Source of the DNA: a bacterium
GTDB taxonomy: Bacteria > Patescibacteriota > Patescibacteriia > Patescibacteriales > UBA12465
Reading direction: 5' to 3'
Length of the DNA stretch: 64,000 nt
NCBI GenBank assembly: GCA_035400585.1
Contig: DAOMZR010000001.1
Coordinates: 370,643-434,642, forward strand
This document shows positions 31,132 through 57,274 of the stretch, in pieces. The notes beneath the pieces are model-generated. The model was not told the origin of the DNA, ran no database searches, and saw only the letters and a program-made list of their open reading frames with translations. The number at the start of each line of letters is the position of its first letter. Positions within the stretch are counted from its first letter, which is position 1. A program made the position numbers and the translations under genes.

Positions 31132-32433
31132 CTATCTAACCGGCCTTAAAAGCTTGTTACTAGCAAAAACAACAACTTCGCCATTATAAGTGAAAAATTT
31201 GCCAGTTGTAGCAGTAGGGCTAAAGGTATAAAGGACATCACCATCAATGTTATAAATTCCACCGCTGCCTACAGCATGAAGTTCGTTATCAACAATAGCA
31301 ATTTGACGAATGCCACTGGGAACATTCGATAAGTCCCAGGTATCGTTTTGATTATTATATTTATAAATACGATTATAGTGAGTACAATATAGATCATTAT
31401 TGAAACTATTAATAAATCTATGTTGAGAACCTATAACTTGGGCAACCGGAGTAAAAATTGATGTTACATCATTCTCTCTGTATCTTATTCCATAACCAGG
31501 CAACCATAAACGATTATCAACAACATTGTCATCCAGATAGGAGAGATTAACATAAGTATCCGAGGTAAACAATTGAGCTAGGGTATCAACATTATATATT
31601 TTACCAATGTAAGCAAAAATAATATTTCCGTTCCAACTAATAACTGAGTGTCCAAAACGATTATCGGTGCCAGTCTGAATAGTATTTATTTCCCAAGTAT
31701 TTAAATCTATTTCGGAAATTTTAGTATCTCCTGAAGTAAATAATCTACCTCCTACATATACCAAAGTATGACCAGACGAACCAATGCCACCAACCGCCCC
31801 CAATCTAAGATCGGTAGCGTGAAGAAGACTATATTGTCCGTTGCTATACTTCCAAAGTTGTTTATCGGTATCAATAAAAATTAAATCATTTCCAATCGGA
31901 ACAACATCGACAACGTTTTTCTCAAATTCAAAAAAAACTTCATAATAACTGTAATCTGGAAGAACTGGATTATCGGGCGATAAATAAGACTCACAACTAT
32001 TAGCAACTATGCCACCAGGGGTTAAACATTTTGGACCTTCGGGCAAATTAGAGATTACTTCTCCGGTACAAAAAGATAACGTATAGGTAGATCCATCGAC
32101 TCCTGGGGAATATTGATAAGTGTTGGAAGAATTGAGACATTCACCATCAGCCGGAGTTGGAGCGGCAGGAATATTATACATATAAAGTTCACCAGAATTA
32201 GAGCCTATAGAACCAGAACTCCACTCTCCATCGGTTGGATATCTACCATTTTCGTTAAAAAATAATTCTAAAGCGGTTTGAAGTTGTTTAACATCAGCAA
32301 CTCGCTTAGAATCTCTAGCCCTAGAACGAGCTTGTTGCAAAGCAACAACAGCTAGCGTGGCCAGTATTCCAATAATAGCGATAACTACCAAGAGTTCAAT
32401 TAAAGTAAAGGCTTTTTTGTTAACCCTAACCAT
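31132..32433 (-). CDS. type IV pilin-like protein, shared N-terminal pilin module plus ~300-aa C-terminal domain (possible beta-propeller)
   Basis: The prepilin leader plus hydrophobic helix is [31 protein letters not shown]. The first ~135 aa are homologous to the pilins at 35865 and 54977. The C-terminal part has recurring IYN(V/I)D- and YKYN-like strand motifs. Confidence 0.85.
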   Translation of the reverse strand: MVRVNKKAFTLIELLVVIAIIGILATLAVVALQQARSRARDSKRVADVKQLQTALELFFNENGRYPTDGEWSSGSIGSNSGELYMYNIPAAPTPADGECLNSSNTYQYSPGVDGSTYTLSFCTGEVISNLPEGPKCLTPGGIVANSCESYLSPDNPVLPDYSYYEVFFEFEKNVVDVVPIGNDLIFIDTDKQLWKYSNGQYSLLHATDLRLGAVGGIGSSGHTLVYVGGRLFTSGDTKISEIDLNTWEINTIQTGTDNRFGHSVISWNGNIIFAYIGKIYNVDTLAQLFTSDTYVNLSYLDDNVVDNRLWLPGYGIRYRENDVTSIFTPVAQVIGSQHRFINSFNNDLYCTHYNRIYKYNNQNDTWDLSNVPSGIRQIAIVDNELHAVGSGGIYNIDGDVLYTFSPTATTGKFFTYNGEVVVFASNKLLRPVR

Positions 32434-32478
32434 AAAATTATATTTTAATTATAGCCTATCTATATAAAAAACAGTATT

Positions 32479-34305
32479 TTAAATACTGTTTTTTTCTCCA
32501 ACAATTTTTTCAAACTCTTCTTTTTCAATCGTTTCTTTTTCCATCAAAACTTTCACTATTTTTTCCAAATAATCTTTTTTATCAGACAAAATTTTTTCAG
32601 CTTTCTTTTTGGAAGATTCTATAAAGTTAGACATTTCTTCATCTATAACCTCGGCTATCTTTTCACTATAATCGCGCTGTTCATGTATTTCTCTACCCAA
32701 AAAAATCATTTCTTCTTTTTCACCAAAAGTTCTAGGTCCGAGCTTTTCGCTCATTCCATAATCAGTGATAAGTCTTCTGGCTATACTGGTTGCTCTTCTT
32801 AAATCAGACGTAGCTCCAGTTGTGACTTCGCCAAAAATTTTTTTCTCAGTAATGTGACCGGCCAATAGGACAGCTATTTCGTCTAAGAAATAATTTTTAG
32901 AATATAATCTTTTGTCATTGGTTGGTAATTTTAAAGTATAGCCACCAGCTTGACCACGAGCAATGATTGAAATTTTATGAACTGGATCGGCATTCGGCAA
33001 AAAATGAGCCACTAAAGCATGCCCAGCTTCGTGATAAGCAGTTACTTCTTTTTCATGATCAGTTATAACTCTACTTTTTCTTTCCGGTCCCATTAAAACT
33101 TTTTCGATGGCTTCAAACAAATCTTTAATATCAATAATTTTTTTATCTTGTCTGGCGGCCAAAATAGCAGCTTCGTTCAAAACGTTAGCTAAATCAGCTC
33201 CGCTAAAACCTGGGGTTCTTTCAGCAATTTTTTTAATTTCAATTTCTTTAGACAGTGGTTTTTTTCTAGCATGAACTTCTAAAATTTCTTCTCTATCTTT
33301 TAAATCAGGGAGGTCAATCACAACTTGACGATCAAAGCGTCCCGGACGAAGAAGTGCTGGATCTAAAACATCTGGCCGATTAGTTGCGGCAATGACAATA
33401 ATATTAACAGTTGGATCAAACCCATCCATCTCAACTAGTATTTGATTTAAAGTTTGCTCTCTTTCATCGTGCGATCCGCCAAGTCCTGCTCCACGACGAC
33501 GACCAACAGCGTCAATTTCATCTATGAAAACTATACAAGGCGAATTCTTTTTAGCTTTTTGAAATAAAGATCTGACACGAGAAGCTCCAACTCCAACAAA
33601 CATTTCCACAAACTCTGAACCAGATATACTATAGAAAGGAACATTAGCTTCGCCAGCCACAGCTTTGGCCATTAAAGTTTTTCCTGTTCCTGGACTGCCC
33701 AAAAGCAAAACTCCCTTAGGAATTTTTGCTCCTAACTCGTGAAACTTTTTAGGAAATCTTAAAAAATCTACTATCTCTGCTAATTCCTGTTTTGCTTCTT
33801 TAGCACCAGCAACATCTTTGAATGTAGTTTTATTTTTTTGATTGTTATCAAATTCTCTGGCCTGAGATTGTCCAAACATCATAGCTTTAGAATTGGCACC
33901 TGAAACGCCCCTCATCATAAAAAACATAAAAGCTGCTACTAAAACAAATGGGATTAAAAATGGCAAAATAGACATCAGCAAAACATTAAAGCCATCCTTC
34001 TCCATTACTTTAATTTCAATTTTGGATGTCTTTTCTGGTAAAACTGAGAAATTATTAAACAATTCCGAAAGAGATTCTCCCTCCTCTTTTTTAACAATTT
34101 TTTTCTCATCTGAATTTAAAACAACATTTAATTCATTGCCACTAACTGAAATTTCTTTAATCTGTTCATCGTTTACCAAAGAAATAAAACTATTTATGCC
34201 AATAACTTCTGGCTTACTGACACCTTCGGAAAAAATACTAAACAAACTAGCAATTACTAAAAAAATAAATAAAAACACTAAACTATTTTTCATTAAAGAT
34301 TTCAT
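32479..34305 (-). CDS. ftsH: ATP-dependent zinc metalloprotease FtsH
   Basis: The AAA Walker A motif GSPGTGKT, the second region of homology, and the HEAGH zinc site are present. The track start is a TTG codon, so I use the ATG at 34305. Confidence 0.93.
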
Positions 34306-34395
34306 AATTATCAAAATAAATTTTTTAAAACAAAAATTTCCGAAATATCGGTTTCAAATTTATTATATATTATTTTAAGCTAATTGTCCAAAAAC

Positions 34396-34422
34396 AAAAA
34401 ACGGGCATCAAGCCCGTTTTTT
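34396..34422 (-). terminator. terminator after rpsA (bidirectional shape)
   Basis: The stem ACGGGC (34401-34406) / GCCCGT (34412-34417) is flanked by an A-run and a T-run. Confidence 0.65.
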
Positions 34423-34434
34423 ATCAAATCTATC

Positions 34435-35601
34435 TTATTTCTTTTCTTTTTTAGTAGTTTTTTTCTCTTTAACCTCTTCTTTTTCAGTTTCACTTTCAAT
34501 TTCTTCTTTTTTCTTTTTTGCCTTTTTACCATCAACTAATTTTAAACCTAAACGATGATCGCTAGCAGAGATGGAAATTATTTCGAATTCTTTTTCTTCG
34601 CCAGCTTTGAAAATATCGTTAACTTTATCTTTTGGATTTATTCCTAGTTGAGTAATGTGAGCTAGACCATGAATTTCATCATCTAATTTAACGAATAGTC
34701 CGAAAGGATTTACCTTTAAAATAGTTCCTTTAACAACTTGAGCAACCTTATATTTTTCAACTGCTTTTTTCCATGGATCTTCAACTATTTTTTTAGCACT
34801 TAAGAAAATCTTATTGTTGTCTAGGTTAACTATTTCAGCTCTGATATCGTCACCAACTTTATACATTTTATCCAAAGAATCAATTCTTTGCCAAGCTAAC
34901 TCTGAAATATGAATCAAGCCTTCCATTCCCTCACCAAAACTAATAAACACACCAAAATTAGTAACAGCTGAGATCTTACCATCAACCACCATTCCGACTT
35001 TGTATTTATCAATAATATGTTTTTGTTTTTTATTCCAAACGTCTTTTTCGCTGAATATTATCTTATCTGATTCTTCTCCTAGATTGATGACGTTAACCTC
35101 TATTTCGTTGCCAACAAAAGATTTTAATTTTTCTAATATTTTTTGTTTATCTCCACCACTAACACGAGGATAATTCTCTGGAGATAATTGTGAAACCGGC
35201 AAGAAACCAGTTATTTGATTGTGTTTAACCAAAAGACCACCCTTGTTAGCATCTAAAACTTTAACTTTAATAACTTCTCTGTCCTTGAAAGCTTGTTCCA
35301 ACTTAGCCCAAGCTTTTTCTTGACCAGCTTGTCTAAATGATAATTCCAATTCTCCATTTTCATTTTCTTCGTCAATAACAGTGGCTTCAATTTCGTTGCC
35401 CGGTTTTAAATTGTCAAAATCATCAGCATCAAAATAAAGCTCTGGTCCACGAACAACACCAACGAAAATACCGTCGATATCTATTCTAACTTCTGATTTA
35501 GAAGCTGAAATTATTTTTCCAATAACGGTGTCTCCAACTTTAGGAATTTTAATTTCATCCTTCTCTAACAAACTAGCTAAAATGCTATTGTTGTTATCCA
35601 T
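34435..35601 (-). CDS. rpsA: 30S ribosomal protein S1 (four S1 domains) with K/E-rich tail
   Basis: This is a 388-aa product with repeated S1 OB-fold motifs (GxxVxGxV...GFVxL..gl.GLiHiSel). The charged tail is KKAKKKKEEIESETEKEE. Confidence 0.88.
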   Translation of the reverse strand: MDNNNSILASLLEKDEIKIPKVGDTVIGKIISASKSEVRIDIDGIFVGVVRGPELYFDADDFDNLKPGNEIEATVIDEENENGELELSFRQAGQEKAWAKLEQAFKDREVIKVKVLDANKGGLLVKHNQITGFLPVSQLSPENYPRVSGGDKQKILEKLKSFVGNEIEVNVINLGEESDKIIFSEKDVWNKKQKHIIDKYKVGMVVDGKISAVTNFGVFISFGEGMEGLIHISELAWQRIDSLDKMYKVGDDIRAEIVNLDNNKIFLSAKKIVEDPWKKAVEKYKVAQVVKGTILKVNPFGLFVKLDDEIHGLAHITQLGINPKDKVNDIFKAGEEKEFEIISISASDHRLGLKLVDGKKAKKKKEEIESETEKEEVKEKKTTKKEKK

Positions 35602-35657
35602 ATAAAAGTTTCTTTTTATCTATTTTAAAAAGGTTATTAAAATAAAAAAAGATTAAC

Positions 35658-35706
35658 TTAGCCCCAAACACTGACATAGTCAGCTTGCAAGCTCCCTGGG
35701 CGCTAA
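35658..35706 (-). promoter_or_regulatory. G+C-rich structured element in the rpsA 5' leader
   Basis: The closing helix is TTAGCCCC (35658-35665) / GGGCGCTAA (35698-35706, with one bulge). Inside lie hairpin CTGAC-ATA-GTCAG (35671-35683) and palindrome AGCTTGCAAGCT (35682-35693). The element sits between a plausible promoter (TTGCTT-17-TAATAT on the minus strand, about 35745-35775) and the rpsA ATG at 35601. Confidence 0.4.
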
Positions 35707-35794
35707 AACCAAGGAATTTATAAAAAGCGCTAAATTCTATTTTTAATATCTTTATATTACTTGATTATTTTAAAAAAAGCAATACTTGTTGTTA

Positions 35795-35823
35795 AAAACA
35801 AAAAAGCCCGAAGAAATCGGGCT
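35795..35823 (-). terminator. terminator after pilin gene 35865..36911
   Basis: The stem is AGCCCG (35805-35810) / CGGGCT (35818-35823). The plus-strand A-run upstream gives a U-tract on the minus strand. Confidence 0.7.
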
Positions 35824-35864
35824 TTAAAATGTAATATTTAAAAACTAAAAAATTAAAATAAATT

Positions 35865-36911
35865 TTATTGAGAAAAACCAACTAGTCTAATCGCTCTAAC
35901 TTTGTGGGAATTGATTTTTAAATCGGTTGGTGCTGGTATAGCATTTGCTTCTTTTACAAAAAAATTTAAAACTTTGTTTTTATAGGACATTGGCGGTTCT
36001 ACGTAGAAAATATTAGCCCCGTTAGCAGGATCTATTGGATCTTCGGTTGATGTCCAATAGTACCCAGATAAACCAGCCCCTTGCAAATTGCTAGACATAA
36101 TATTAATTAACTCACTATATGATGGTAAAAACCAATCATCGTAGCCACCGCCCCTATAATCACTAGCTAACTTAGCGGCCCCACTAGAACCAACGCAGCT
36201 TGGATCATAACTCAAAATATCATTTGTGCTATCAATACCACAATATCCAGAATAATTAAAAGTATCAGTAGTTTCAACACCTGCACAACCCCAAGAAGTT
36301 CCAGAGCTTTGATCCTCTTCAGCTACAACTAAGGCAAAATCTTGCCAATTATTAGTCGGGCAAGTTATAGGATAGCCAGAAGTGTCTCTATAAATAACAA
36401 TACCACCGCCACAACTATCTCCCACCACTGAATCAATTGTACACTCTGGCTCTGTTGCTGGTTGAGATGGCGCCCCGCTAGAAGAAAGTATTATTCCGCC
36501 TGGAGTTAAATATTTTGCACCATCTGGCAAGTCAGCTACTTGTTTGCCAGTACAAAAATCTACAGTATAAGTATCACCATTTACCGAAGGCGTGTAGGTG
36601 TAAGTGTTGGAAGCCGACGTACAATCACCATCAGCTGGAGATGGGGCAGCTGGAATGTTATACATAAAAATTTCTCCACTAGAATCAGAAACAATCTGAC
36701 CAGAGCTCCACTCGCCCTGAGTTGGATAACGACCATTTTCACTAAAAAACAATTCTAAAGCAGTTTGGAGTTGTTTCATGTCAGCCATTCTCTTGCTATC
36801 ACGAGCACGAGAACGAGCTTGTTGCAAGGCAACTACCGCTAAAGTGGCGAGTATTCCAATGATGGCAATAACCACCAAAAGTTCGATCAAAGTAAAGGCT
36901 TTTTTCCTCAT
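35865..36911 (-). CDS. type IV pilin-like protein, shared N-terminal module plus DUF1566 (Lcl C-terminal)-like domain
   Basis: The product begins [33 protein letters not shown]. The C-terminal [14 protein letters not shown] and YYWTSTE resemble the DUF1566 signature (WRLPT..EL, YWSS) as I remember it. Confidence 0.8.
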
Positions 36912-37016
36912 ATTTTTTTAAATAAAAATAAAAATAAAAAATATTACTATTTAAATAAATTTATCATTTTTTTATATTTTTGTAAACATTTAAAAAATAA
37001 AGTAAAAAAATTAACC

Positions 37017-38285
37017 TTAAATTTTCAAGTTCTTTTTAATTTCCAGTTCTTTGATTCCATCTCCAATAACAGCTAAATTTAAAGATTTGTTAACAAATAA
37101 ATTATTAGCCACTCTTCTAATGTCCTGGCTAGAAACTTTTTTAATTTTTTTCAAAGCCTCGTCGGGTGACAAAAATTTCTTAGAAAAAGGAAATTGATGA
37201 CCATACCAACTAGTAAAATCATCTGTTCCCTCCATGTTAACAATCAGTTTGCCGGCAAATAAATCTTTGGCTTTTTGTAACTCCTCTTTACCGACCAATT
37301 CTTTTTTTAATTTTTTGTATTCATTTAAAATAACCCTAACTGATTCATTTAACTTATCTTTTGGTATCCCAGCTTGAACGCTAACGTAACCACAATCAGA
37401 ATAAAGTTCAACATTACTACGAACATAATAGGCCAAACCACGACGCTCTCGAAGCTCGATAAACAACCTAGAACTCATTGATCCACCGAGAATAATAGAC
37501 AAAAGTTTTAAAACTTTTTCATCTTTATGATTTGAAGGAAAAGCTCTAAAACCAAGGGACAAGGTTATTTGATCTGTTTTTTTATTTTTAATTTTTACAC
37601 TGGGGATTTTTTGAGTTTCTACAACTTTAATTTTGTTTTTATATTTATTTTTCCTAAATTCACCAAACTTTTTCTCTAACTCTTTTTTAATTTTGTCATC
37701 AGAAAAATCGCCAGCCACAAAAACAGCTGATCCATTAGCGCCATACTGACTATCATAATAATCTAAAAAATCTTGACGATTCAAATTTAAAATATTTTCT
37801 TTGAAACCAATTGTATCCCAACCAGCTGGCGTGTCTCCATAAAGACAAGACTCAAAAACATCTTCAATATACATCAAGGGATTGTCTTCATACATATTCA
37901 ACTCTTCAATAATAACACCTCTCTCTCTGTCAATTTCTGCTTGTTCAAATTTTGAATTAATGAGCATATCACTCAACACATCCAGAGCTACATTAAATTT
38001 AGCTTTCTGAGATTTGATATAATAACCAGTATATTCTTTGCCAGTAAAAGCATTAAACTCGGCTCCAATTGAATCAAGTTCGCCCGAAAGATCACGAGTT
38101 GTTGGTCTGTTTTTTGTTCCCTTAAAAAACATATGTTCTAAAAAATGAGACAAACCGGAATTCTGACGATTTTCATATTTAGATCCAGTTTTAAACATAA
38201 CCAAAACTGTGGCTGACTTAGCGCGAGGAATATTAACCAAAAAGGTCGGCATTCCATTACTTAAAATAATTTTTTTAACATTCAT
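37017..38285 (-). CDS. M16-family zinc peptidase (pitrilysin-like)
   Basis: The inverted zinc motif HFLEHMFFKGT (HxxEH) is present. The product is 422 aa. Confidence 0.88.
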   Translation of the reverse strand: MNVKKIILSNGMPTFLVNIPRAKSATVLVMFKTGSKYENRQNSGLSHFLEHMFFKGTKNRPTTRDLSGELDSIGAEFNAFTGKEYTGYYIKSQKAKFNVALDVLSDMLINSKFEQAEIDRERGVIIEELNMYEDNPLMYIEDVFESCLYGDTPAGWDTIGFKENILNLNRQDFLDYYDSQYGANGSAVFVAGDFSDDKIKKELEKKFGEFRKNKYKNKIKVVETQKIPSVKIKNKKTDQITLSLGFRAFPSNHKDEKVLKLLSIILGGSMSSRLFIELRERRGLAYYVRSNVELYSDCGYVSVQAGIPKDKLNESVRVILNEYKKLKKELVGKEELQKAKDLFAGKLIVNMEGTDDFTSWYGHQFPFSKKFLSPDEALKKIKKVSSQDIRRVANNLFVNKSLNLAVIGDGIKELEIKKNLKI

Positions 38286-38402
38286 AAGATTAATTTTTTT
38301 AAAAACAAAAAAACGGTTTAAATAAAATTTATTTAATTATAATTCATTTTAATTATATCAAATATATGTTATAATTGGAATAATTAAAATTAATAAAATT
38401 CT

Positions 38403-39119
38403 ATGAAGTATAAAATGAAGGATAATAATATAATTATCAATCGTAACAAAAAATACAACATAGTTGCTATCAGAGACAGAATAGAAGATGAAAAGCCCAG
38501 GGAAAAAATGATAAAAATGAGCCCCGAAACCCTATCTTCGGCTGAACTATTAGCTGTAATTTTAAATTCCGGAACCAAAAAGGAAGAAGTGTTAAGCATG
38601 GCCGACAGAATATTAAAAGAGTACGGAAAAAATTCAATAATCAATGAAAAAAATCCAAAAAATATAGAAAAACAATTCGGATTGCCACTAGTTAAATCCT
38701 GCCAAATAGTAGCTTGCTTTGAATTGGGGCGCCGTTTTTTTAATGAAAATAAAATTGGAACAATTACAATCAGAAACGCCAAGCAAGCCTTCGAACATCT
38801 TAAAGATATGGGCAATTTAAATAAAGAGCATTTCAAGGGTCTTTATTTAAATAGTCGTTATAAACTGGTACATAGCGAAACAATTTCCATCGGAACTTTA
38901 GATGCTAGCATAATACATCCTCGAGAAGTTTTTAAACCAGCCTTAGAATATTCAGCCAGTGCAGTTATAATTGCCCACAATCATCCTTCTGGTGTTTTAA
39001 AGCCAAGCAAAGAAGATCTAGAAATAAACACCAAACTTAAAGAGGCGGGAGAAATACTGGGAATTGAAATTCTTGATCATCTAATAATTTCTAAAAATAA
39101 ATTTATAAGCCTATCTTAA
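38403..39119 (+). CDS. radC: RadC-like JAMM domain protein
   Basis: The motifs PREKM...LSSAELLAVIL and HNHPSG (JAMM) are present. The antisense ORF 38390..38836 is rejected. Confidence 0.88.
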   Translation: MKYKMKDNNIIINRNKKYNIVAIRDRIEDEKPREKMIKMSPETLSSAELLAVILNSGTKKEEVLSMADRILKEYGKNSIINEKNPKNIEKQFGLPLVKSCQIVACFELGRRFFNENKIGTITIRNAKQAFEHLKDMGNLNKEHFKGLYLNSRYKLVHSETISIGTLDASIIHPREVFKPALEYSASAVIIAHNHPSGVLKPSKEDLEINTKLKEAGEILGIEILDHLIISKNKFISLS

Positions 39120-39352: not shown

Positions 39353-39374
39353 TTTTATTCAGGGTTATTTTTTT
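39346..39374 (+). terminator. rho-independent terminator
   Basis: The stem is ACCCTGA (39346-39352) / TCAGGGT (39359-39365), followed by a T-run. Confidence 0.7.
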
Positions 39375-39390
39375 AAAAACATTAACATTG

Positions 39391-40287: not shown

Positions 40288-40363
40288 TTTATATATATTT
40301 ATTTGTTTTTTTTCAAAGTACAAAATTGGCTGACAAAATCTGGACAGCCTAGACTAACCGCTG

Positions 40364-47105: not shown

Positions 47106-47114
47106 AATAAACAA

Positions 47115-48136: not shown

Positions 48137-48147
48137 AATAAAAAATT

Positions 48148-50373
48148 ATGACAGAAGAAAAAAAATTTTCTGGAGACTGGCTTGGTCGAGAACTAAGCTT
48201 TAGAACCGGCAAATTAGCCAAACAGGCCGATGCTTCGGTTTTGGTTCAATATGGCGAAACAGTAGTTATGGCCACGGTTGTTCAATCAAAAAACGAAAGA
48301 GATGGTATAGATTTCTTCCCTCTTATGGTTGAGTTTGAAGAAAAATTATACGCAGCTGGAATCATCAAAGGTTCTCGCTGGATCAAACGCGAAGGTCGTC
48401 CAACAGATCAATCGATTCTAACAGGCAGAATGATTGATCGCTCAATAAGACCTCTTTTTAATGATGAAGAAAGAAAAGACGTTCAACTTATAATTACAGT
48501 TTTATCAGTTGATGGGGAAAATGATTATGACATTGTATCTTTGATAGCTGCTTCAGCTGTTTTAAGAATTTCTGGAATAGATTGGAATGGACCAATTGGT
48601 GGAATTAGGGTTGGTTTAATTGATAATCAATTTGTTTTTAATCCTAGCTATGAACAACAAGGTATTAGTAATTTAGATTTAATTGTTGCTGGTACTAAGG
48701 AAAAAGTAATAATGATTGAAGCTGGTGCTCAAGAAATTAAAGAAGATTTAATGCTTGAAGCTATAAAACTAGGTCAAGAAAAACTACAGGGAGCAATTAA
48801 TTTAATAGAACAATTTAAAGCTCAAGTGACCGTAAAAGAAAGCGAGGAAACAAAAAAGATGATTAGTGAAGAGGAAATAAAAGAAAAAAACAGAAAGGAA
48901 GAATTACTAAATTTTGGGAAAACATGGCTTAAAGAAAATATCAAAAACATTCTTTTTGATAAAATCTATTACACCAAAAACGAAAGAAAACTAGCCGTCA
49001 GAAAAATAAAAGAAGGTTTAGACGAATATTTATTCACTCAAAACATCGGAAAATCAGATAGAGATTTTATAATCAAAAAACTAGTTGAAAAAATGGTAGA
49101 AGCTGAAGTAACTCGAGCAATTTTAGAGGAGAAAAAAAGAGTTGACGGCAGATCTTTAAACGAAATCAGGTCTTTATCATCTGAAGTTTCAATACTGCCA
49201 AGAAATCACGGCACAGGATTATTCACTCGTGGAGAAACACAGGTTTTATCAATAGTAACACTTGGATCACCAGGAATGGAACAATCACTAGAAAGCATTG
49301 AAGGTCAAAGCAAAAAAAGATATATGCACCACTACAACTTTCCTCCTTACAGCGTAGGAGAGGCTAGTCCACTTCGAGGAACTGGTCGAAGAGAAATTGG
49401 TCATGGTGCCTTAGCTGAAAAAGCCTTGATTCCAGTTCTACCAAATAAAGAAGAATTCCCTTACACAGTTAGAGTTGTCAGTGAAACCCTAGGATCAAAC
49501 GGATCATCTTCAATGGCTTCTACTTGTGGATCAAGCTTAGCCTTAATGGACGCTGGAGTGCCAATTAAAAGCCCAGTTGCTGGTATTGCCATGGGACTGG
49601 CCTCTAATGAAGATATGAGCAAATGGGAAATACTAACTGATATTCAAGACTTAGAAGATGGTAAAGGTGGTATGGATTTTAAAATAACCGGAACAAAAGA
49701 AGGATTAACAGCCATACAATTAGATACTAAAACTGATGGATTAACTGAAGAAATAATTAAAAAAACATTGTCTGATGGCAGAAAAGCTTTAAATCAGGTT
49801 CTAGAATCAATACAGGGCACACTAGTTGAAGCTAGAAAAGAGTTGTCGCCTTATGCTCCTAGAATAATCAGCTTTCGTGTTAACCCAGAAAAAATTGGAG
49901 CAATCATTGGTCCCGGTGGAAAGATTATTAATAAAATAATAGAAGAAACCGAAGTAACCATCGACATTGAAGATGATGGTTTGGTTATGATTTGCTCAAC
50001 CAATCAAGAAAACGGAAAAAGAGCCGAAAAAATGGTTAAAGATATTGTTAGAGAATTTGAAGTTGGAGAAATATTTACTGGAAAGGTAGTTAGATTAATG
50101 GACTTTGGGGCCTTTGTTGAATTAGCTGGTGGACAAGACGGAATGGTTCATGTCAGCGAATTAGCTCCCTATAGAATAGGGAAACCATCGGACTTCGTTA
50201 ATATCGGCGATATGGTAACTGTAAAGATAAAAGAAATTGATTCTCAAGGAAGAATAAATCTAACAATGAAAGGCTTGGCTGAAAATGAACCATTATGGAA
50301 AGATAAAAAGGGTGAATCTCAAGGAAATAATAATACTTTTCATAAAAAACCAAATTTTAGTAAAAAATACTAA
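48148..50373 (+). CDS. pnp: polynucleotide phosphorylase
   Basis: This 741-aa product has two RNase PH domains plus KH and S1 domains. It begins GRELSFRTGKLAKQADASVLVQYGETVVMATVV. Confidence 0.95.
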   Translation: MTEEKKFSGDWLGRELSFRTGKLAKQADASVLVQYGETVVMATVVQSKNERDGIDFFPLMVEFEEKLYAAGIIKGSRWIKREGRPTDQSILTGRMIDRSIRPLFNDEERKDVQLIITVLSVDGENDYDIVSLIAASAVLRISGIDWNGPIGGIRVGLIDNQFVFNPSYEQQGISNLDLIVAGTKEKVIMIEAGAQEIKEDLMLEAIKLGQEKLQGAINLIEQFKAQVTVKESEETKKMISEEEIKEKNRKEELLNFGKTWLKENIKNILFDKIYYTKNERKLAVRKIKEGLDEYLFTQNIGKSDRDFIIKKLVEKMVEAEVTRAILEEKKRVDGRSLNEIRSLSSEVSILPRNHGTGLFTRGETQVLSIVTLGSPGMEQSLESIEGQSKKRYMHHYNFPPYSVGEASPLRGTGRREIGHGALAEKALIPVLPNKEEFPYTVRVVSETLGSNGSSSMASTCGSSLALMDAGVPIKSPVAGIAMGLASNEDMSKWEILTDIQDLEDGKGGMDFKITGTKEGLTAIQLDTKTDGLTEEIIKKTLSDGRKALNQVLESIQGTLVEARKELSPYAPRIISFRVNPEKIGAIIGPGGKIINKIIEETEVTIDIEDDGLVMICSTNQENGKRAEKMVKDIVREFEVGEIFTGKVVRLMDFGAFVELAGGQDGMVHVSELAPYRIGKPSDFVNIGDMVTVKIKEIDSQGRINLTMKGLAENEPLWKDKKGESQGNNNTFHKKPNFSKKY

Positions 50374-50376
50374 ATA

Positions 50377-50405
50377 TTGACTTTTATCTATAATTAATAT
50401 AGTAT
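50377..50405 (+). promoter_or_regulatory. promoter TTGACT-17-TAGTAT upstream of rpsP
   Basis: TTGACT lies at 50377-50382 and TAGTAT at 50400-50405. Confidence 0.5.
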
Positions 50406-50442
50406 AAAGTATCTAATCTATAAGTAAAAAGAGAAGAAAAAT

Positions 50443-50865
50443 ATGTTAACGATCAAAATGGCCAAAGTTGGTAAAACAAACAAGAAGGTTTTCCGAATTG
50501 TTGTCTCTGAAAAAGCTAGAGACCCATATGGAAGAGCTTTAGAAATTCTTGGTTCTTACAACCCTTACAGCAAAAAACTAGACGTAAAAGCTGATAGAGT
50601 TAAACACTGGATTTCCAAAGGATCACAAATGACACCATCTATCAATAATTTATTTATTGATAACAAAGTTATTGATGGCGGAAAAATTAAAAATTCCAAA
50701 CCAGGAACACCAAATAAAAGAAAATTAGAAAAAGCTGAAAAGATTAAAGAAAAAGAGTTAGCAGCAGCTCAAGCAGCTGAAGAAGCTAAGAAAGCAGCTG
50801 AAGAAGCTAAAAACAATCCAGTAGAACAAACAGAAACTCCAAGCGAAGAAGTTAAGGCAGAATAA
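50443..50865 (+). CDS. rpsP: 30S ribosomal protein S16 with long charged C-terminal extension
   Basis: The core is MLTIKMAKVGKTNKKVFRIVVSEKARDPYGRALEILGSYNP. A K/E/A-rich tail of about 60 aa follows. Confidence 0.9.
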   Translation: MLTIKMAKVGKTNKKVFRIVVSEKARDPYGRALEILGSYNPYSKKLDVKADRVKHWISKGSQMTPSINNLFIDNKVIDGGKIKNSKPGTPNKRKLEKAEKIKEKELAAAQAAEEAKKAAEEAKNNPVEQTETPSEEVKAE

Positions 50866-50871
50866 TTTGGT

Positions 50872-50900
50872 TTGACTTTTTGTTAAAATACCTTTAAAAT
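50872..50900 (+). promoter_or_regulatory. promoter TTGACT-17-TAAAAT upstream of KH-domain gene
   Basis: TTGACT lies at 50872-50877 and TAAAAT at 50895-50900. Confidence 0.5.
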
Positions 50901-50988
50901 TTAAACAGCACCGTTTAGGTGGTTAAAAATTAAGAAAATTCTTATAAATTTGTGTGATGAAACAATTTATAGGGATAGATCGACAATT

Positions 50989-51303
50989 ATGTCGGAAAAT
51001 CAAGACAAGAAATTCTTAGAAACGATCATCACTTCTATTGTCAGCAAACCAGAAGCTGTATCAGTAGATAGAACAGTTGATGAAAGAGGAGTTCTTTTGA
51101 CCTTAAAAATTGATCCAAGCGATATGGGATTTGTTATCGGTCGCCGCGGACAAACAGCTCAAGCTATTAGAACTTTGCTGAAAGTTGTTGGTGCTAGAAA
51201 TAACTCTAGAGTAAATTTAAAGATTTACGATCCAAATAACGGAGCTAGACCAGAAAGAAGAGAGTCAATTGATACTTCAGCTATCGACGATTTAAAAATC
51301 TAG
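50989..51303 (+). CDS. KH-domain RNA-binding protein (YlqC/UPF0109-like)
   Basis: The KH GxxG motif occurs in VIGRRGQTAQAIRTLLKVV. The gene sits in the conserved position between rpsP and trmD. I prefer the ATG at 50989 (MSENQ) over the non-ATG track start at 50950. Confidence 0.8.
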   Translation: MSENQDKKFLETIITSIVSKPEAVSVDRTVDERGVLLTLKIDPSDMGFVIGRRGQTAQAIRTLLKVVGARNNSRVNLKIYDPNNGARPERRESIDTSAIDDLKI

Positions 51304-51327
51304 TTAATAAAAAACAAATTAGATAAA

Positions 51328-51360
51328 ACAAAAGACCATAAAATGGTCTTTTGTTTGTTT
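51328..51360 (+). terminator. rho-independent terminator
   Basis: An 11-bp stem ACAAAAGACCA (51328-51338) / TGGTCTTTTGT (51344-51354) is followed by a T-rich run. Confidence 0.7.
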
Positions 51361-51370
51361 ATAGAAAAAT

Positions 51371-52033
51371 ATGAAATTCAACATCATTACAATCTTCCCC
51401 CAAATCTTTTCTTCCTATTTTAACGAAGGAATGTTAAAAAGAGCTATTGATAGAAAAATAATAAAAATAAAAACACACGATTTACGAAACTTTACCAACG
51501 ACAAAAGAAAAACTGTCGATGATACTGTTTATGGTGGCGGCGCTGGAATGCTTTTAAAAATAGAGCCTCTGTATAAGGCTGTAAAAAAAATTGCTAAAAA
51601 GAAAAAAACGACTGGCCAAAAGATAATTCTACTATCAGCCAAGGGTAAGAAGTGGAATCAACAAATGGCCCAAAAATATTCAAAACTAAAATCAATAACT
51701 TTGATATGTGGAAGATATGAGGGCGTAGATGAAAGAATAAAAAATTTTATTGACGAAGAAATATCAATTGGAGATTATGTTCTAACTGGCGGTGAAATTG
51801 GAGCCATGGCTATAATCGACTCCGTCTCCAGATTACTACCCAAAGTATTGGGAAACAAGGAAAGCATAAAAGACGAATCTCATCAAAAAGAAGGGGTTTT
51901 AGAACATCCCCAATATACTAAACCAGCTATTTTTAAAATTGGAAAAAAAGAATACAAAGTACCAAAAGAATTATTATCAGGAAATCACAAACTAATAGAA
52001 AACTGGAAACTTGACAATAAATTAAAAAAGTAG
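51371..52033 (+). CDS. trmD: tRNA (guanine37-N1)-methyltransferase
   Basis: The motifs MKFNIITIFPQIF, YGGGAGMLL and GRYEGVDER are TrmD signatures. Confidence 0.93.
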   Translation: MKFNIITIFPQIFSSYFNEGMLKRAIDRKIIKIKTHDLRNFTNDKRKTVDDTVYGGGAGMLLKIEPLYKAVKKIAKKKKTTGQKIILLSAKGKKWNQQMAQKYSKLKSITLICGRYEGVDERIKNFIDEEISIGDYVLTGGEIGAMAIIDSVSRLLPKVLGNKESIKDESHQKEGVLEHPQYTKPAIFKIGKKEYKVPKELLSGNHKLIENWKLDNKLKK

Positions 52034-52088
52034 CAAAAAATTAAAACAAACCAGAAAAACACCTTTATTTAATGGGTGTTTTTTAGTA

Positions 52089-52117
52089 TTGACATTTTCT
52101 ATAATATATGATATAAT
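52089..52117 (+). promoter_or_regulatory. consensus promoter TTGACA-17-TATAAT
   Basis: TTGACA lies at 52089-52094 and TATAAT at 52112-52117. Confidence 0.7.
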
Positions 52118-52167
52118 TCTAGGTTATTAGGACATTAAAATTGTTTAATCTAAAATAAAAGAAAACC

Positions 52168-53400
52168 ATGAGAACAAAAGTCGTTTTTCTGTTTATGGCT
52201 GTAATCGGCCTGATGTTTTCCTCCTGTGAAAAGGAAGAATATTTTATGATGGTTTCAGAGGAAGATAATGAAAATCCATCAAACCAGATTTCTCTTAATT
52301 ACTCCCTAAAAGAGTCTCAAAAAAGCTCTAAGGCTGAAGGAACAAATTTGGTGAATGGACAGACCATTACTGGAAACATTGCTTATTATTTTTCATTTTG
52401 GTTGAACCCTAGCGAAGGTGTTGTTGCTAAAGGTATTTACACTATAACAAACACCAAAACCAGTGCTATTGTTTATGGACCTTCTGCCGCCGCTGAAAAC
52501 GGAATTGATTTTAAATTTCCAGAAGCCGCAAACTACAGTTTAAAAGTTGAGGGAAACTACAATGGACAAAATTTTCTATATGAAAATATAACCATTATTG
52601 TCACCCCTTCAGACACAACTACTGGCAACACTAGTTTGACATCACCCGTTAGATTGTATGATTTTTCTTTAAACGGAACCAATGCTATAGTTAAAATAGC
52701 AATCAGTAAAGCAGAATATCAATCATCATCTTCGGCAAACTGGTTTTATGTAAAGAGAACTAATGGACAAGGTTTCGTTGGCAATCAATCTTTAACCAGT
52801 GAAAACGACAGCGTTCGCTTTACTTTAACTTTCCCAGCAAACAGTAATGATTATATCGAATTTAATGTTGGGTATCATGATGGATCTAGTGGTGGAATGT
52901 GGTTAACCCCATCGATTGGACAAAATCCAAGCATCTTATGGTCGGGTAATCAAAATCTACCCTACACAAATTCTGGTTCCTTCTTCGGTTTTAGATTGCA
53001 TGTAATTTCGTCTACTCAAGCGGAACTCCGAAATTATGGTGGTACTACACTAATAACATTTAATAGTGCTAGCACGACTCAAATACCGGGCGAAGCAGGT
53101 GATGGACCTTCTACTCAATATACTGTTAGATGGAGTGGTTTTAAACATTTTTTTAAGACCAGTATTACTTCTCCGACTTTCAGATATAAAGTAGGAACAA
53201 ATGGTACATGGAATTTTTTAACAGTTTCAAACAACGCCAACCCTTCTTACAAAGAAATAACTTTTCCAGATCAAACAACTGGAGAAATACATTTTCAATG
53301 GGGAACGGGAACTGGAACAAGTTTTGTGCCAGCAACAAGCGAGATGGCTTACAGTATATACTGGAGCCCAAGCAATCAGTCCTTAGTAAAAAATATTTAG
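52168..53400 (+). CDS. putative lipoprotein / secreted protein, unknown function
   Basis: This is a 410-aa product. Its N-terminus MRTKVVFLFMAVIGLMFSSCEKEE has a signal peptide with a Cys at a lipobox-like position. The body is S/T/N-rich and looks beta-rich. Confidence 0.7.
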   Translation: MRTKVVFLFMAVIGLMFSSCEKEEYFMMVSEEDNENPSNQISLNYSLKESQKSSKAEGTNLVNGQTITGNIAYYFSFWLNPSEGVVAKGIYTITNTKTSAIVYGPSAAAENGIDFKFPEAANYSLKVEGNYNGQNFLYENITIIVTPSDTTTGNTSLTSPVRLYDFSLNGTNAIVKIAISKAEYQSSSSANWFYVKRTNGQGFVGNQSLTSENDSVRFTLTFPANSNDYIEFNVGYHDGSSGGMWLTPSIGQNPSILWSGNQNLPYTNSGSFFGFRLHVISSTQAELRNYGGTTLITFNSASTTQIPGEAGDGPSTQYTVRWSGFKHFFKTSITSPTFRYKVGTNGTWNFLTVSNNANPSYKEITFPDQTTGEIHFQWGTGTGTSFVPATSEMAYSIYWSPSNQSLVKNI

Positions 53401-53420
53401 GACATTAGAATAAGTAAAAC

Positions 53421-53457
53421 AAAAAAGCCTTCATTAATTTGAAGGCTTCTTTTTTTA
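53421..53457. terminator. bidirectional terminator between convergent genes
   Basis: A 9-bp stem AAGCCTTCA (53425-53433) / TGAAGGCTT (53440-53448) is flanked by an A-run and a T-run. Confidence 0.75.
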
Positions 53458-53469
53458 TAAAAATATTAA

Positions 53470-54528
53470 TTAAATTAAATAATAGCCATTGTTATTTTTT
53501 AGTATATTGCCCTCAACCATAAATCCGGCGGCCTTTTTGTGCCCTCCACCATTAAAATAGGAAGCTAAATGGGCAACGTCAATTTTCTCAACATTTTCTC
53601 CAGATCCAACCCTCAAACTTCCCTTTATTTTTCCCTTCTCTTCTTCTCTTAAAAGCAAAAATGTTTTAGCATCAGACAAACTACTCATAAAACCAATAAT
53701 ATCTCCAAAAACATCACTACTTAAATTGATAGCTGGTTCTTTAAAAAATATTAAATTTTCATAAGTCAGGACCGAAAAAGCAATATTATATTTTTTGTTT
53801 ATTTTTAAATTAGCTAAAGCCAGGCCCCATAATTTCATTTCCCAAAAGTTTTTATTGCGCCAAGTATTTTGAAGTAGTTTAGGAAACTGAGCGCCCAAGC
53901 TCATCATTTCTGAAGCTATTTTTAAAGTTTTATCACTAACTGAAGAATACAAAAAATTTCCAGTATCGGTTAACATTCCAGCTAGAATGCAATTAGCTAT
54001 ATCGCGATTTATTTCAATATTATTTTCTTTTAAAAAATAATATAAAAGCTCGGTGTTTGATGACAATTGAATTTTAATTTCAATATCAGCATAACTTTTA
54101 ACTTTTAAATGATGGTCAATTTCTATAACAAATGTGTCCAACATTAAATCTCTAATATTATAAATTTCCTCAGCAATAACTGTCCTGTCTATAGATCCGC
54201 AATCCAAGGTTACAATAACATCAAAAAATTTTAACCAATCGTTCCCAACTTCCAAGTTGTTGTTATATTTGGATTTAATTTTATTTATAAGACTTTCTTT
54301 ATTGGAAATGATATTTTCAAATCCAGGCAAAAAATAATAATCATCATTTTTTTTCTCAGCGAATGCCAAAAAGTCTTTATTTAAGTTTTTAAAAATTTCA
54401 ATAAAAACACCCAGAGAAGATAGAGCATCAACATCAGGATTAATATGAGACACTAAAAGAACCCTATCTGCCGAGAGGATTCTTTGCCAGGCTTTTTTAA
54501 AGTTTTTCTGATCAGTTTCGGAAAACAT
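53470..54528 (-). CDS. DHH-family phosphoesterase (NrnA-like)
   Basis: The motifs SHINPDVDALSS, DHH and GGGHKKAAG (DHHA1) are present. Confidence 0.8.
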   Translation of the reverse strand: MFSETDQKNFKKAWQRILSADRVLLVSHINPDVDALSSLGVFIEIFKNLNKDFLAFAEKKNDDYYFLPGFENIISNKESLINKIKSKYNNNLEVGNDWLKFFDVIVTLDCGSIDRTVIAEEIYNIRDLMLDTFVIEIDHHLKVKSYADIEIKIQLSSNTELLYYFLKENNIEINRDIANCILAGMLTDTGNFLYSSVSDKTLKIASEMMSLGAQFPKLLQNTWRNKNFWEMKLWGLALANLKINKKYNIAFSVLTYENLIFFKEPAINLSSDVFGDIIGFMSSLSDAKTFLLLREEEKGKIKGSLRVGSGENVEKIDVAHLASYFNGGGHKKAAGFMVEGNILKNNNGYYLI

Positions 54529-54532
54529 ATTT

Positions 54533-54874
54533 TTATTCTTTTTTTTCCCTCTCTATTTCATTAAAAGCTTCATCCAATTTTCCAGCGATTTTAAAACCAT
54601 CGTCAACTACCCAAAAAATCTTGGGAACTCTAACTAATCTAGCTTTTATTTTTAATAGTTTAGATAAGTGACCGGTTTTAGATCGAAGTCTTTTTAAGGC
54701 TGTGCCAAAAAAATTTTCTGGCAAAACAGAAATAAAAACTTTAGCTACAGACAAATCGGGCGAACACTTCACATCAGAAATGGTAATTAAAAAATTAGGC
54801 GACTCAATTTCACTTACTATTATTTCCGCTAGATAATGCTTTATTATCTCATTTAGTTGATTGGCTTTAGACAT
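54533..54874 (-). CDS. rbfA: ribosome-binding factor A
   Basis: This is a 113-aa RbfA-like product. It lies in the infB neighbourhood. Confidence 0.8.
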   Translation of the reverse strand: MSKANQLNEIIKHYLAEIIVSEIESPNFLITISDVKCSPDLSVAKVFISVLPENFFGTALKRLRSKTGHLSKLLKIKARLVRVPKIFWVVDDGFKIAGKLDEAFNEIEREKKE

Positions 54875-54935
54875 AAATTGTTATTAGATATTGTGAAATT
54901 ATAGCATTTTATAAGATTTTATTCAAGACAAACAA

Positions 54936-54966
54936 AAAACCCAAAAAAAATATTTGGGTTTTTTAT
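54936..54966 (-). terminator. terminator after BNR-repeat pilin gene
   Basis: The stem AAAACCCAAA (54936-54945) / TTTGGGTTTT (54954-54963) has U-tracts available on either strand. Confidence 0.65.
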
Positions 54967-54976
54967 AAAAGTTAAT

Positions 54977-57274
54977 TTACTTACACAACCAAACATTTCC
55001 ACCAAATACTACTGCATAAATTTTATTGCCATCCGAAGATAAGGCAACTGATCGCCAATTTCTTGTGCCAGCCAATGTTCTTTCTGTCCAGGTTACGCCA
55101 GAATCAGAAGAGGTATAAATATAACCACCATAAGCAACGGCGGCTAATTTTGTTCCATCAGAAGAGGAAGCGATAGAATTCCAACTTCTTGAGCCAGCGG
55201 AAGTTTGTTCTGTCCAAGTTGCACCAGAATCAGAAGAGATATAAATATAACCACTAGAAACAACCGCTGCTAATTTGGTGCCATCAGAAGAAGAGGCGAC
55301 AGAGGTCCAACTTCTTGATCCAGCGGAAGTTTGTTCTGTCCAAGTTGCACCAGAATCAGAAGAGGTATAAATATAACCACCAAAATTAACTACAGCTACT
55401 AGTTTTGTACCATCAGAAGAGGAAGCGATAGAATTCCAGCTCCTTGATCCAGCAGAAGTTTGTTCTGTCCAAGTAACTCCAGAATCAGAAGAGGTATAAA
55501 TATAACCAGTAGAAACAGTCGCTGCTAGTTTTGTGCCATCAGAAGAAGAGGCGACAGAGGTCCAACTCTTTGAACCAGCCGATGTTTGATTCCAAGTAAT
55601 GCCAGAGTCGGACGAAGTATAAACATGACCTCCCCCAACAACAGCAACCAGTTTGATGCCATCCCAAGAAGATGCAATCGAAAACCAACTAACTAAAGGG
55701 GAAATTTGACCAGTCAAAGTTTCACCAAAATCGGAAGAAGTATAAATATTACCAGCATTACCAACCACTGCAAAAACTTTTTCACCATCAGAAGAAGATG
55801 TGATTGAACGCCAATTTTTAGGACCAAGACCAGAATAATCTTTTTTTACCCAAGTAACACCAGAATCGACTGAAGTATAAATATAATCATTATAGGCAGC
55901 AGCGATTAATTTCGTACCATCGTAAGAAGAAACAATTGATTGCCAGCCCCTTGAACCGGCCGAGGTTCTTTCTGTCCAAGTTACCCCCGAATCAGATGAA
56001 GTATAAATATAACCGCTAATTTCTGAAGTTGCCATTAATTTTGTACCATCAGATGAAGAATAGATTGATGTCCAATATTTTGAACCAGCCGAGGTTCTTT
56101 CTGTCCAGTTTACGCCAGAATCAGAAGAGGTATAAATATAACCAGTATAGGCCACAGCCGCAAGCTTGACACCATCAGAAGAAGAAGATATTGATTTCCA
56201 ATATCTTGCCCCAGCCGAGGTTCTTTCTGTCCAAGTTACACCTGAATCAGATGAAGTATAAATATAACCAGTAGTTCCAGTTCCTGCTACAATCGTGCTA
56301 CAATCCGACGAACAAACGATAGAATACCAACTTCTAGCACCGGATGATGTTTGTTCTACCCAAGTTACACCAGAATCAGAAGAGGTATAAATATAACCAC
56401 CATAAGCAACGGCGGCTAATTTTGTTCCATCAGAAGAGGAAGCGATAGAATTCCAACTTCTTGAGCCAGCGGAAGTTTGTTCTGTCCAAGTTGCACCAGA
56501 ATCAGAAGAAGTATAAATATAACCGCTAGAAACAACCGCTGCTAATTTGGTGCCATCGGAAGAAGAGGAAATTGATCTCCAACTTCTTAAACCAGCCGAG
56601 GTTCTTTCTGCCCAGGTTGCGCCAGAGTCGGTTGAAGTATAAACATAACCGGAACTGACAAAAGCTAAAGCAGCTAATTTAGTTCCATCGGAAGAAGAAG
56701 AAATAACTCTCCAAGCCCTAGGTCCAGAAGCAACCACCTCGGTCCATTGTTTTTCAACACAAGAACCATCAACACAATTATAACCATATTCGCAGGCTGG
56801 ACTACAAACCGCCCCTCCTTCACTAGAAGTATCGCTAACGATTATTATTCCACCAGGAGTCATTTGTTTGACCCCATCTGGTAAATCAGAAACTTGCTTA
56901 CCGGTACAGAAATCTATAGTATAACTAGCTCCATTATCCCTAGGAATATAAACGTAAGTATTAGAAGAATTTGTACAACCACCATCAGCTGGTGTCGAAG
57001 CAGAAGGAATAGTTTGCATAAAAATTATTCCTTCGGTTGAAGAACCTATAAAACCCTGATTCCATTCTTCTTCTGTGGGATATCTACCATATTCGTTAGC
57101 AAATAGCTCCAAAGCAGTGTGAAGTTGCTTCATGTCAGCCATTCTTTTAGAATCTCTAGCGTTTTGTCTTGCTTGTTGCAAAGCAACAACAGCCAAAGTT
57201 GCTAAAATACCAATAATGGCAACAACTACCAATAATTCAACCAAGGTAAAAGCTTTTTTTCTTAGCTTAAACAT
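54977..57274 (-). CDS. type IV pilin-like protein, shared N-terminal module plus 14 BNR/Asp-box repeat blades
   Basis: The product begins [36 protein letters not shown]. It then has 14 units of about 42 aa, each with the pattern [21 protein letters not shown](A/V)TW. The SxDxGxTW element is the BNR/Asp-box. Confidence 0.88.
55098..55237. repeat. 140-nt perfect intragenic direct repeat, copy A
   Basis: This copy is identical to 56370-56509 by manual comparison. The offset is 1272 nt, so it is in frame (424 codons). Similarity continues with a few mismatches for about 80 more nt. Confidence 0.85.
56370..56509. repeat. 140-nt perfect intragenic direct repeat, copy B
   Basis: See copy A. Confidence 0.85.

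Follow-up and report, generated by a model that had tools for sequence, protein, structure and literature searches.

How does one and the same pilin sequence come to stand in front of three protein parts that have nothing in common, and what could such proteins do for the cell that makes them? The question is raised by a stretch of 64,000 nucleotides from a bacterium of the Patescibacteriota (GTDB lineage UBA12465; assembly GCA_035400585.1, contig DAOMZR010000001.1, positions 370,643 to 434,642 of the forward strand), referred to here as the window, in which three genes on the minus strand, named A, B and C, encode prepilin-like proteins of 433, 348 and 765 residues. With a probability of roughly 0.65, these proteins are modular type IV pilins that display differing cargos on one carrier. 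Cells of the Patescibacteria, also called the candidate phyla radiation (CPR), depend on attachment to other microbes. Among their attachment devices type IV pili have the best support, and the pilus component that recognises the host is largely undefined outside one Saccharibacteria model. A, B and C are candidate host-recognition determinants in an uncultivated lineage of anaerobic-digester-type samples, and a shared carrier placed before differing cargos offers a simple way of searching metagenomes for adhesin repertoires.

One Module at the Start of Three Genes

All three genes are intact open reading frames (ORFs) with an ATG start, located on the minus strand at 31132..32433 (A), 35865..36911 (B) and 54977..57274 (C), and together they account for ~7% of the coding space of the window. 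Each begins with a short leader, MVRVNKKA in A (32410-32433), MRKKA in B (36897-36911) and MFKLRKKA in C (57251-57274), which is followed by the pilin module, comprising residues F9-I142 in A (32008-32409), F6-I140 in B (36492-36896) and F9-I143 in C (56846-57250). The sequence KKA/FTL(I/V)ELLVV(I/V) at this junction, common to A, B and C, is that of a class III signal peptide, and a six-frame scan of the 64-kb window found exactly three such motifs, namely those of the three genes. The N_methyl family (PF07963) matches all of them with 30-33 bits (cut-off 21.2; E 3e-08 for gene A) and TIGR02532 with 29-32 bits (cut-off 16.3). The GspG equivalog of type II secretion systems (T2SS), TIGR01710, reaches 45-48 bits (cut-off 88.85), its match being confined to model positions 2-64 of 134, that is, to the helix.

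A preliminary description of this DNA had claimed that three homologous N-terminal modules of ~135 residues are followed by complete divergence, and both parts of the claim hold: from KKAFTL to TPGGI, over 137-138 residues, A, B and C share about 69-79% identity in protein and 70-75% in DNA, and past TPGGI nothing aligns, no similarity being detectable among the three. The same region was picked up by a blind DNA repeat search, which placed two three-copy families (D4 and D5) at the 5' ends of the genes. When divergence is measured as the fraction differing among codons with a conserved amino acid, ~43% of such codons differ synonymously between the modules (pairwise 0.42-0.46, saturated), a value as high as that between housekeeping orthologues. 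The modules are thus old paralogues held alike by selection and not recent duplicates, or, in other words, three old carrier lineages without recent exchange. Recent gene conversion among A, B and C was accordingly considered and rejected, given this synonymous difference, the DNA identity of 70-75% and the lack of long identical tracts.

Within the module, Y62, P63, P87, C97, Y115 and C120 (numbered as in B) are invariant across 138 family members, and the two Cys residues probably form the usual pilin disulfide. The Ala before the mature Phe, to which the preliminary description had drawn attention as unusual, is indeed present in all three leaders, but it had to be given up as a special feature: position -1 is occupied by Ala in 96 of the 135 long members of the family and in 31 of the 103 short ones, and leader peptides as a rule end in Gly or Ala (PMC10191384). 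It is therefore the normal alternative to Gly, and the notion that it calls for a special peptidase is unsupported.

The Module as a Complete Small Pilin

AlphaFold2 (AF2) models of the module show the "lollipop" of a type IV pilin, with a 52-residue N-terminal helix (residues 8-59) and a beta-sheet of 4-5 strands, at a predicted local distance difference test score (pLDDT) of 85-97 (~85-90 in gene A and ~95 in gene B). The best Foldseek matches of the B model in the PDB are pilins and pseudopilins, namely those of Shewanella (4d40), PAK (1oqw) and the gonococcus (5vxx) as well as EpsG (4lw9), with template modelling scores of up to 0.62 when normalised to the target; the E-values are weak (8e-03), owing to the 200 low-confidence residues inside the B query. 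When the module alone was used for searching, more than 4,500 proteins were found, the best 120 being mostly "prepilin-type" proteins of 140-165 residues from Patescibacteria at 50-60% identity.

Stand-alone Patescibacteria pilins of 140-150 residues align co-linearly with the module over their full length (55-66% identity) and end a median of 8 residues past the TPGG motif, so that the module corresponds to a whole small pilin and not to a fragment of one. As judged from sequence and predicted structure, the region shared by A, B and C is a full type IV pilin domain. The structure prediction that the preliminary description had proposed as a check thus returned a pilin fold, and its view of a complete small pilin domain with interchangeable cargo gains support from this fold, from the co-linear stand-alone pilins and, as set out below, from the many cargo families and the linker breakpoints found in relatives. 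In each of the three proteins, a complete pilin module is joined by a short linker to a domain with no particular tie to pilus biology, which is the definition of a modular pilin in the sense of Raynaud et al.

Three Cargos of Different Kinds

The part behind the module differs in kind from gene to gene, and the types given in the preliminary description (a putative propeller, a DUF1566-like domain and fourteen BNR blades) agree with the more extensive analysis, in which cargo A is all-beta with propeller matches, cargo B resembles DUF1566/Lcl_C and cargo C carries 13 Asp-boxes in 14 repeats. Cargo A (residues 143-433, 31135-32007, minus strand) is the most isolated one: its C-terminal 290 residues have four homologues among 5.8 billion proteins, all of them pilins of 433-434 residues with a like architecture. 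Its AF2 model is all-beta, built of repeated four-strand units at pLDDT 70-90, and matches Kelch, WD40, tectonin and fishelectin propellers in Foldseek (E ~5e-08). According to this model, cargo A is a lineage-restricted beta-propeller of six or seven blades that bears no database signature.

In gene B, a Ser/Pro/Glu-rich linker leads to a cargo of the DUF1566/C-type-lectin-like kind (together 35868-36491, minus strand). A phmmer search with the cargo alone recovered more than 40 proteins annotated with PF07603 (E 6e-10 to 1e-3), and homology to this family is visible in the core motifs GGG(I/V)V, DDW.LPS, YW(S/T)S and VRA(I/V)R, the alignment having the invariant columns G27, G28, D117, W118, P121, W144, S146 and VRAIR. 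The profile of cargo B also matches a solved structure, PDB 8q4e (E 2e-25); a literature search on this entry ("HbP1") found nothing relevant. On the strength of these profiles, cargo B is assigned as a DUF1566/C-type-lectin-like domain. In Legionella Lcl, the C-terminal domain containing DUF1566 is C-type-lectin-like and binds glycosaminoglycans (PMC11162425).

Gene C continues with a linker and a Cys-rich segment (56714-56845, minus strand) and ends in fourteen BNR/Asp-box blades of ~42 residues each (54980-56713, minus strand). The repeats are 41-44 residues long, with a DNA period of 126 nt, and the 13 Asp-boxes follow the pattern SxDxGxTW; BNR_6 (PF15899) and PSII_BNR (PF14870) match with 67.2 and 38 bits, respectively, against cut-offs of 27, so that this cargo is a BNR protein by either family. 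Its closest solved relatives in the PDB are the seven-bladed propellers of Ycf48, and the fourteen blades may by inference be arranged as two propellers of seven blades. Some blocks of blades are recent internal duplicates (within 55012-56709), the stretches 55012-55311 and 56284-56583 sharing 85% of their DNA, and two of the 42-residue blades are almost identical in protein. The number of blades may vary between strains.

A Wide Family of Modules and Cargos

The family was assembled from representatives of clusters at 50% identity, 268 of which match the module at E <= 1e-30. Among the best 150 of these 268 representatives, nearly all are 300-1400 residues long and have the module at residues ~5-145. 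A Pfam search of 101 of them assigned Fib_succ_major to 51 and Lcl_C to 10, the other cargos including InlB B-repeats, BNR, DUF5122 and LVIVD propellers, Laminin_G_3 and Hint; these counts were used in place of a single-linkage BLAST clustering of the cargo regions, which was discarded for over-merging (114 of 133 in one family). The module thus precedes dozens of differing domain families, and by their annotation the cargos are adhesion or glycan-type domains. Linkers in the family are enriched in Gly, Ser and Asp, and those of the three window genes are rich in Gly, Ser, Pro and Glu.

When one genome per species was scanned for module loci of more than 70% identity, four close metagenome-assembled genomes (MAGs) emerged with 4-6 such loci each, namely JALNZW, CAZILW, CAZNDY and Falkowbacteria HGW-1. 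The locus nearest to the window among GTDB representatives is 83% identical, and a metagenome scan with the DNA pattern GTTGCYTTGCAACAAGC returned unrelated contigs among the matches listed. Many module loci of the relatives sit at contig ends, as expected for repeated sequence. HGW-1 encodes a stand-alone pilin of 154 residues, a solitary gene between housekeeping genes, in addition to at least five extended forms. Two of the MAGs, CAZILW01 and CAZNDY01, are titled "uncultured Gammaproteobacteria bacterium" while being syntenic with the window and carrying the same pilin family; these two records are probably mislabelled.

Around gene A, synteny with CAZILW extends for more than 17 kb. Gene B, located between genes for an M16 peptidase and ribosomal protein S1, is present in JALNZW and missing from CAZILW (L212, 4549-4785), and in CAZNDY a further modular pilin, of 549 residues, comes before it. 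The presence or absence of gene B at a conserved site implies that the pilin repertoire changes between close relatives.

Separate Histories of Module and Cargo

In a tree of modules, several paralogues cluster by genome and not by cargo. Across the paralogues of relatives that carry unrelated cargos, modules are 92-98% identical in protein and 90-93% in DNA: for instance, the modules of L007, L009 and L010 in CAZILW share 98% of their residues with cargos that are unrelated or, for L007 and L010 in BLAST, 33% identical, and both L008 and L014 in JALNZW and L015 and L020 in HGW-1 combine modules of 95% protein identity with unrelated cargos. The cargo counterparts of these paralogues in other genomes are attached to modules of just 81-85% identity. 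The fraction of differing conserved codons points the same way, amounting to 0.12-0.22 for module pairs within a genome and to 0.42-0.57 for the cargos of those pairs, as compared with 0.35 for orthologous modules of CAZILW and JALNZW and 0.35-0.41 for housekeeping genes of the window and CAZILW. Along such pairs of paralogues, sliding identity drops from ~0.95 to ~0.45 inside one 60-nt step at the linker.

A similar break exists between genomes, where loci L017 and L018 have modules of 97-100% and cargos of 45-65% DNA identity; L005b and L006 show the opposite pattern in a stretch at a contig end, which could be chimeric. The module of gene C falls in the carrier lineage of L017 and L018 (86-87% identity), and gene C bears BNR blades where these two bear a domain of the Fib_succ_major type. 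Positional orthology of gene C with L017 and L018 was tested and rejected, since neither infB nor rbfA occurs in their flanks.

Low synonymous divergence of modules next to high divergence of cargos, together with the breakpoints at the linker, indicates that modules are converted or homogenised, or cargos swapped, in relatives of the window genes. Module and cargo thus appear, from sequence comparison, to have separate evolutionary histories there, which suggests how such repertoires diversify. It is put forward tentatively, and with the odds somewhat against it, that the carrier module is near enough to a major-type pilin to build in anywhere along the filament and at the same time acts as a recombination handle, its copies being homogenised inside a genome and the cargos swapped at the linker, inside a genome and perhaps also from one genome to another. 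If this were true, a fast-evolving and genome-scattered repertoire of pilus lectins and propellers would set the host range of the episymbiont; in function, this would be comparable to the swapping of C-termini in polymorphic toxins.

Genomic Setting and Candidate Pilus Machinery

Each of the three pilin genes stands alone among housekeeping genes, the neighbours being FtsH on one side of A and L32 and NusB on the other, an M16 peptidase and S1 around B, and IF2 and RbfA around C. An intrinsic-terminator-like hairpin lies directly downstream of gene B (35803..35825, minus strand), which, along with a promoter-like site at 36986-36958, suggests that gene B forms its own transcription unit. Gene C is likewise directly followed by an intrinsic-terminator-like hairpin (54932..54966, minus strand), and upstream of it there are a terminator-like hairpin ending infB (57317-57335) and, directly before the gene, a promoter-like site (57329-57302).

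Two candidate motor proteins of type IV pili are encoded in the window. The first, at 8008..11034 (plus strand), is a candidate pilus assembly ATPase of 1008 residues in which an MshEN-like N-domain is combined with two complete, tandemly arranged PilB/GspE (T2SSE) domains (two stretches of Pfam T2SSE, 4.6e-231); it resembles a fused double assembly ATPase. The second is a candidate retraction ATPase of the PilT type at 28244..29527 (minus strand; Pfam T2SSE 4.5e-43), whose gene lies four genes downstream of gene A, a position kept in CAZILW.

Other content of the window is mentioned only briefly. A reverse transcriptase (RT; 25693-26913) matches defence-type enzymes (PADLOC RT_UG26, 1e-34, and UG17), is followed by an ATPase-like ORF of 567 residues and an ORF resembling phospholipase D (PLD)/DrmC, and adjoins a metallo-beta-lactamase (MBL)-fold protein; the block as a whole (22826-28258) is entirely syntenic in CAZILW (L212) and is possibly a defence island with no link to the pilins. 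Since an RT co-occurs in the window with the lectin-like cargo B, a diversity-generating retroelement targeting this cargo was considered, and it was rejected because the RT is of the defence type and the window contains no pair of template and variable repeats. The rRNA genes on the minus strand follow one another along the transcribed strand as 23S (22439-19427), 5S (19374-19260) and 16S (19064-17504), with 16S downstream of 5S, unlike the usual order 16S-23S-5S. Finally, three ORFs with N-termini like those of signal peptides or lipoproteins and no Pfam match (515-1687, minus; 52168-53400, plus; 60110-60970, minus) may encode further surface proteins.

A Proposed Mechanism and Its Alternatives

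Each prepilin consists of a basic leader ending in Ala, the pilin module, a short linker rich in Gly, Ser, Pro and Glu and the gene-specific cargo, the module contributing Phe1, Glu5, a hydrophobic alpha-1N segment, the 52-residue helix, the sheet of 4-5 strands and the conserved Cys pair. Once inserted in the membrane, the prepilin would be cleaved after Ala(-1) by a prepilin peptidase and polymerised through its module by the type IV pilus machinery; since the module and the stand-alone pilin of the lineage are one and the same unit, the module could occupy a subunit position in the filament, with the cargo hanging outside on the flexible linker. There, by analogy, the most probable ligands of the cargos would be surface glycans or proteins of a host cell or substrate, and the small cell would be drawn onto its target as the pilus retracts, differing cargos on one carrier amounting to a repertoire of specificities. 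In the wider family, the module may also serve as the stretch of homology through which cargos are exchanged or modules homogenised. The adhesin role attributed here to A, B and C rests on the likeness to PilB and PilC of Streptococcus sanguinis and PilX2 of Saccharibacteria.

Several results weigh against this picture. The model of cargo A contains a low-confidence gap of ~60 residues (277-338). Cargo B alone stays below the Pfam cut-off for Lcl_C/DUF1566 (PF07603; 19.4 against 34.9 bits), and its AF2 model is poor (pLDDT ~35), probably because of a mixed MAFFT alignment, so that its identity is based on sequence profiles in place of the model. Cargo C resembles a glycosylhydrolase of the F510_1955 family (NF045728, E 4.9e-29). 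A prepilin peptidase (PilD), PilC/PilMNO and a short major pilin were not found in the 64-kb window, and the pilus that A, B and C would join is for this reason inferred. As to recombination, the evidence comes from MAGs in which several of the loci are located at the ends of contigs and may contain chimeric joins, and A, B and C themselves show no recent exchange (synonymous difference 0.42-0.46).

Among the alternatives, the proteins could be displayed at the cell surface without being filament subunits, the class III signal peptide and module serving merely to export and anchor the cargo. The "bindosome" of Sulfolobus, in which archaeal sugar-binding proteins carry class III signal peptides, provides a model for such anchoring, and it would fit both the scattering of A, B and C among housekeeping genes outside any pilus operon and the bulk of the cargos (~22-65 kDa), which is awkward within a filament shaft. 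Nevertheless, this possibility is considered unlikely: the whole globular pilin domain is conserved, at 68-79% among paralogues with saturated synonymous sites and up to 99% among relatives, and the features relevant for polymerisation (Phe1, Glu5 and the Cys pair) are retained, a constraint on the entire module that fits the packing of subunits against one another better than plain anchoring. Besides, the stand-alone short pilin of HGW-1 is just as much a scattered single gene, and characterised modular pilins do occur in filaments (PMC8179133). Another possibility, for gene C at any rate, is an enzymatic cargo, with the BNR propellers working as a glycoside hydrolase or sialidase-like enzyme that the pilus delivers to break down polysaccharide on the host surface. 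BNR/Asp-box repeats occur in sialidases and in enzymes of glycoside hydrolase family 74, and the F510_1955-family match of cargo C speaks for the same idea. A precedent for it is given by the pilin-peptidase fusions that Raynaud et al. list (PMC8179133). However, the NF045728 match reaches 101.3 bits, well under the curated equivalog cut-off of 175, the closest solved relative Ycf48 is a non-catalytic scaffold, and blades that are copies of one another with few changes, some almost identical and with DNA blocks of up to 85% identity, argue against a differentiated active site; these near-copies favour a scaffold over an enzyme, and a catalytic cargo C is judged very unlikely.

Finally, the fusions might be artefacts in which a pilin gene and a separate downstream gene were joined by an assembly or sequencing error, a missed stop or a frameshift. 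The window is metagenomic, repeated modules can break or mis-join assemblies, and many related loci do lie at contig ends. Even so, this explanation, which the preliminary description had named as a way in which its reading could fail, is already effectively refuted: the three ORFs are uninterrupted, the exact full-length proteins A, B and C occur on 24, 18 and 13 contigs, respectively, which were assembled independently from varied samples and by varied assemblers (JGI, ENA and Logan), and orthologues have the same lengths and architecture as the genes in the window, in a layout common to hundreds of family members. Identical proteins on 13-24 contigs and orthologues of equal length indicate that the fusions are real genes and not the product of missed stops or mis-assemblies.

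Comparison with Known Systems

Modular pilins are a published concept, and A, B and C are further members of the class. For the following comparison, the InterPro entries IPR011871, IPR011460 and IPR002860 are taken by us to be Fib_succ_major, DUF1566 and BNR, respectively. The architecture of the window genes is the same as in the modular pilins of Raynaud et al., which have been catalogued across InterPro in 2021 as a widespread class of more than 1,200 proteins in 264 architectures, many of them from the CPR (Magasanikbacteria, Falkowbacteria, Wolfebacteria, Gracilibacteria, Saccharibacteria and Parcubacteria), with Dataset S1 recording fusions of IPR012902 with IPR011871 in 40 proteins, with IPR011460 in 7 plus 2 and with five copies of IPR002860 in 1 (PMC8179133). 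In S. sanguinis, PilB is an adhesin with a von Willebrand factor A (vWA) module and PilC has a lectin module; the authors favour a position at the tip for modular pilins, the shaft being allowed if the linker is flexible (PMC8179133). The divergent minor modular pilins of S. sanguinis are encoded in one operon, whereas here the genes are scattered and monocistronic, and three modular pilins (4-6 or more per genome in relatives) use one highly similar carrier, which at ~60% identity is unusually close to the stand-alone pilin of the lineage. What the present analysis adds is three members, one cargo with no database signature (that of gene A), a carrier common to several scattered genes per genome, and, as the point that reaches past the catalogue, evidence in relatives for homogenisation of modules or swapping of cargos.

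Enlarged pilins are also known in other settings. CofB and TcpB, minor pilins of type IVb systems, and GspK are pilin-fold subunits with extra domains at the tips of filaments (PMC8179133). They are found in Proteobacterial type IVb pili and T2SS as one copy per system with system-specific extra domains, in contrast to the generic repertoire of lectins and propellers described here. The tip adhesins PilY1/PilC, which place a beta-propeller with variable added modules at the pilus tip, recall the propeller-bearing pilins of the window, yet PilY1 does not belong to the pilins: it lacks a class III signal peptide and docks onto minor pilins. A search of Pfam-type families found no PilY1-family match in A, B or C.

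In the pilE/pilS system of Neisseria and in the polymorphic toxins of the Rhs and contact-dependent inhibition (CDI) types, recombination replaces a variable C-terminal part by way of the homology lying in a conserved N-terminal part. By analogy, these systems resemble the sharp breakpoints between module and cargo in relatives of the window genes. Unlike them, all pilin copies considered here are full-length with starts of their own, a repeat search saw neither silent cassettes nor orphan cargo modules in the window, and no programmed mechanism is implied.

Further comparison is offered by PilX1 and PilX2 of the Saccharibacteria strain TM7x, which belongs to the same superphylum and whose pilins carry large, lectin-like C-terminal domains. 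PilX2 is a pilin with a seven-bladed beta-propeller and is required for efficient binding to the host (PMC11623550), making it the best precedent for the function of genes A and C.

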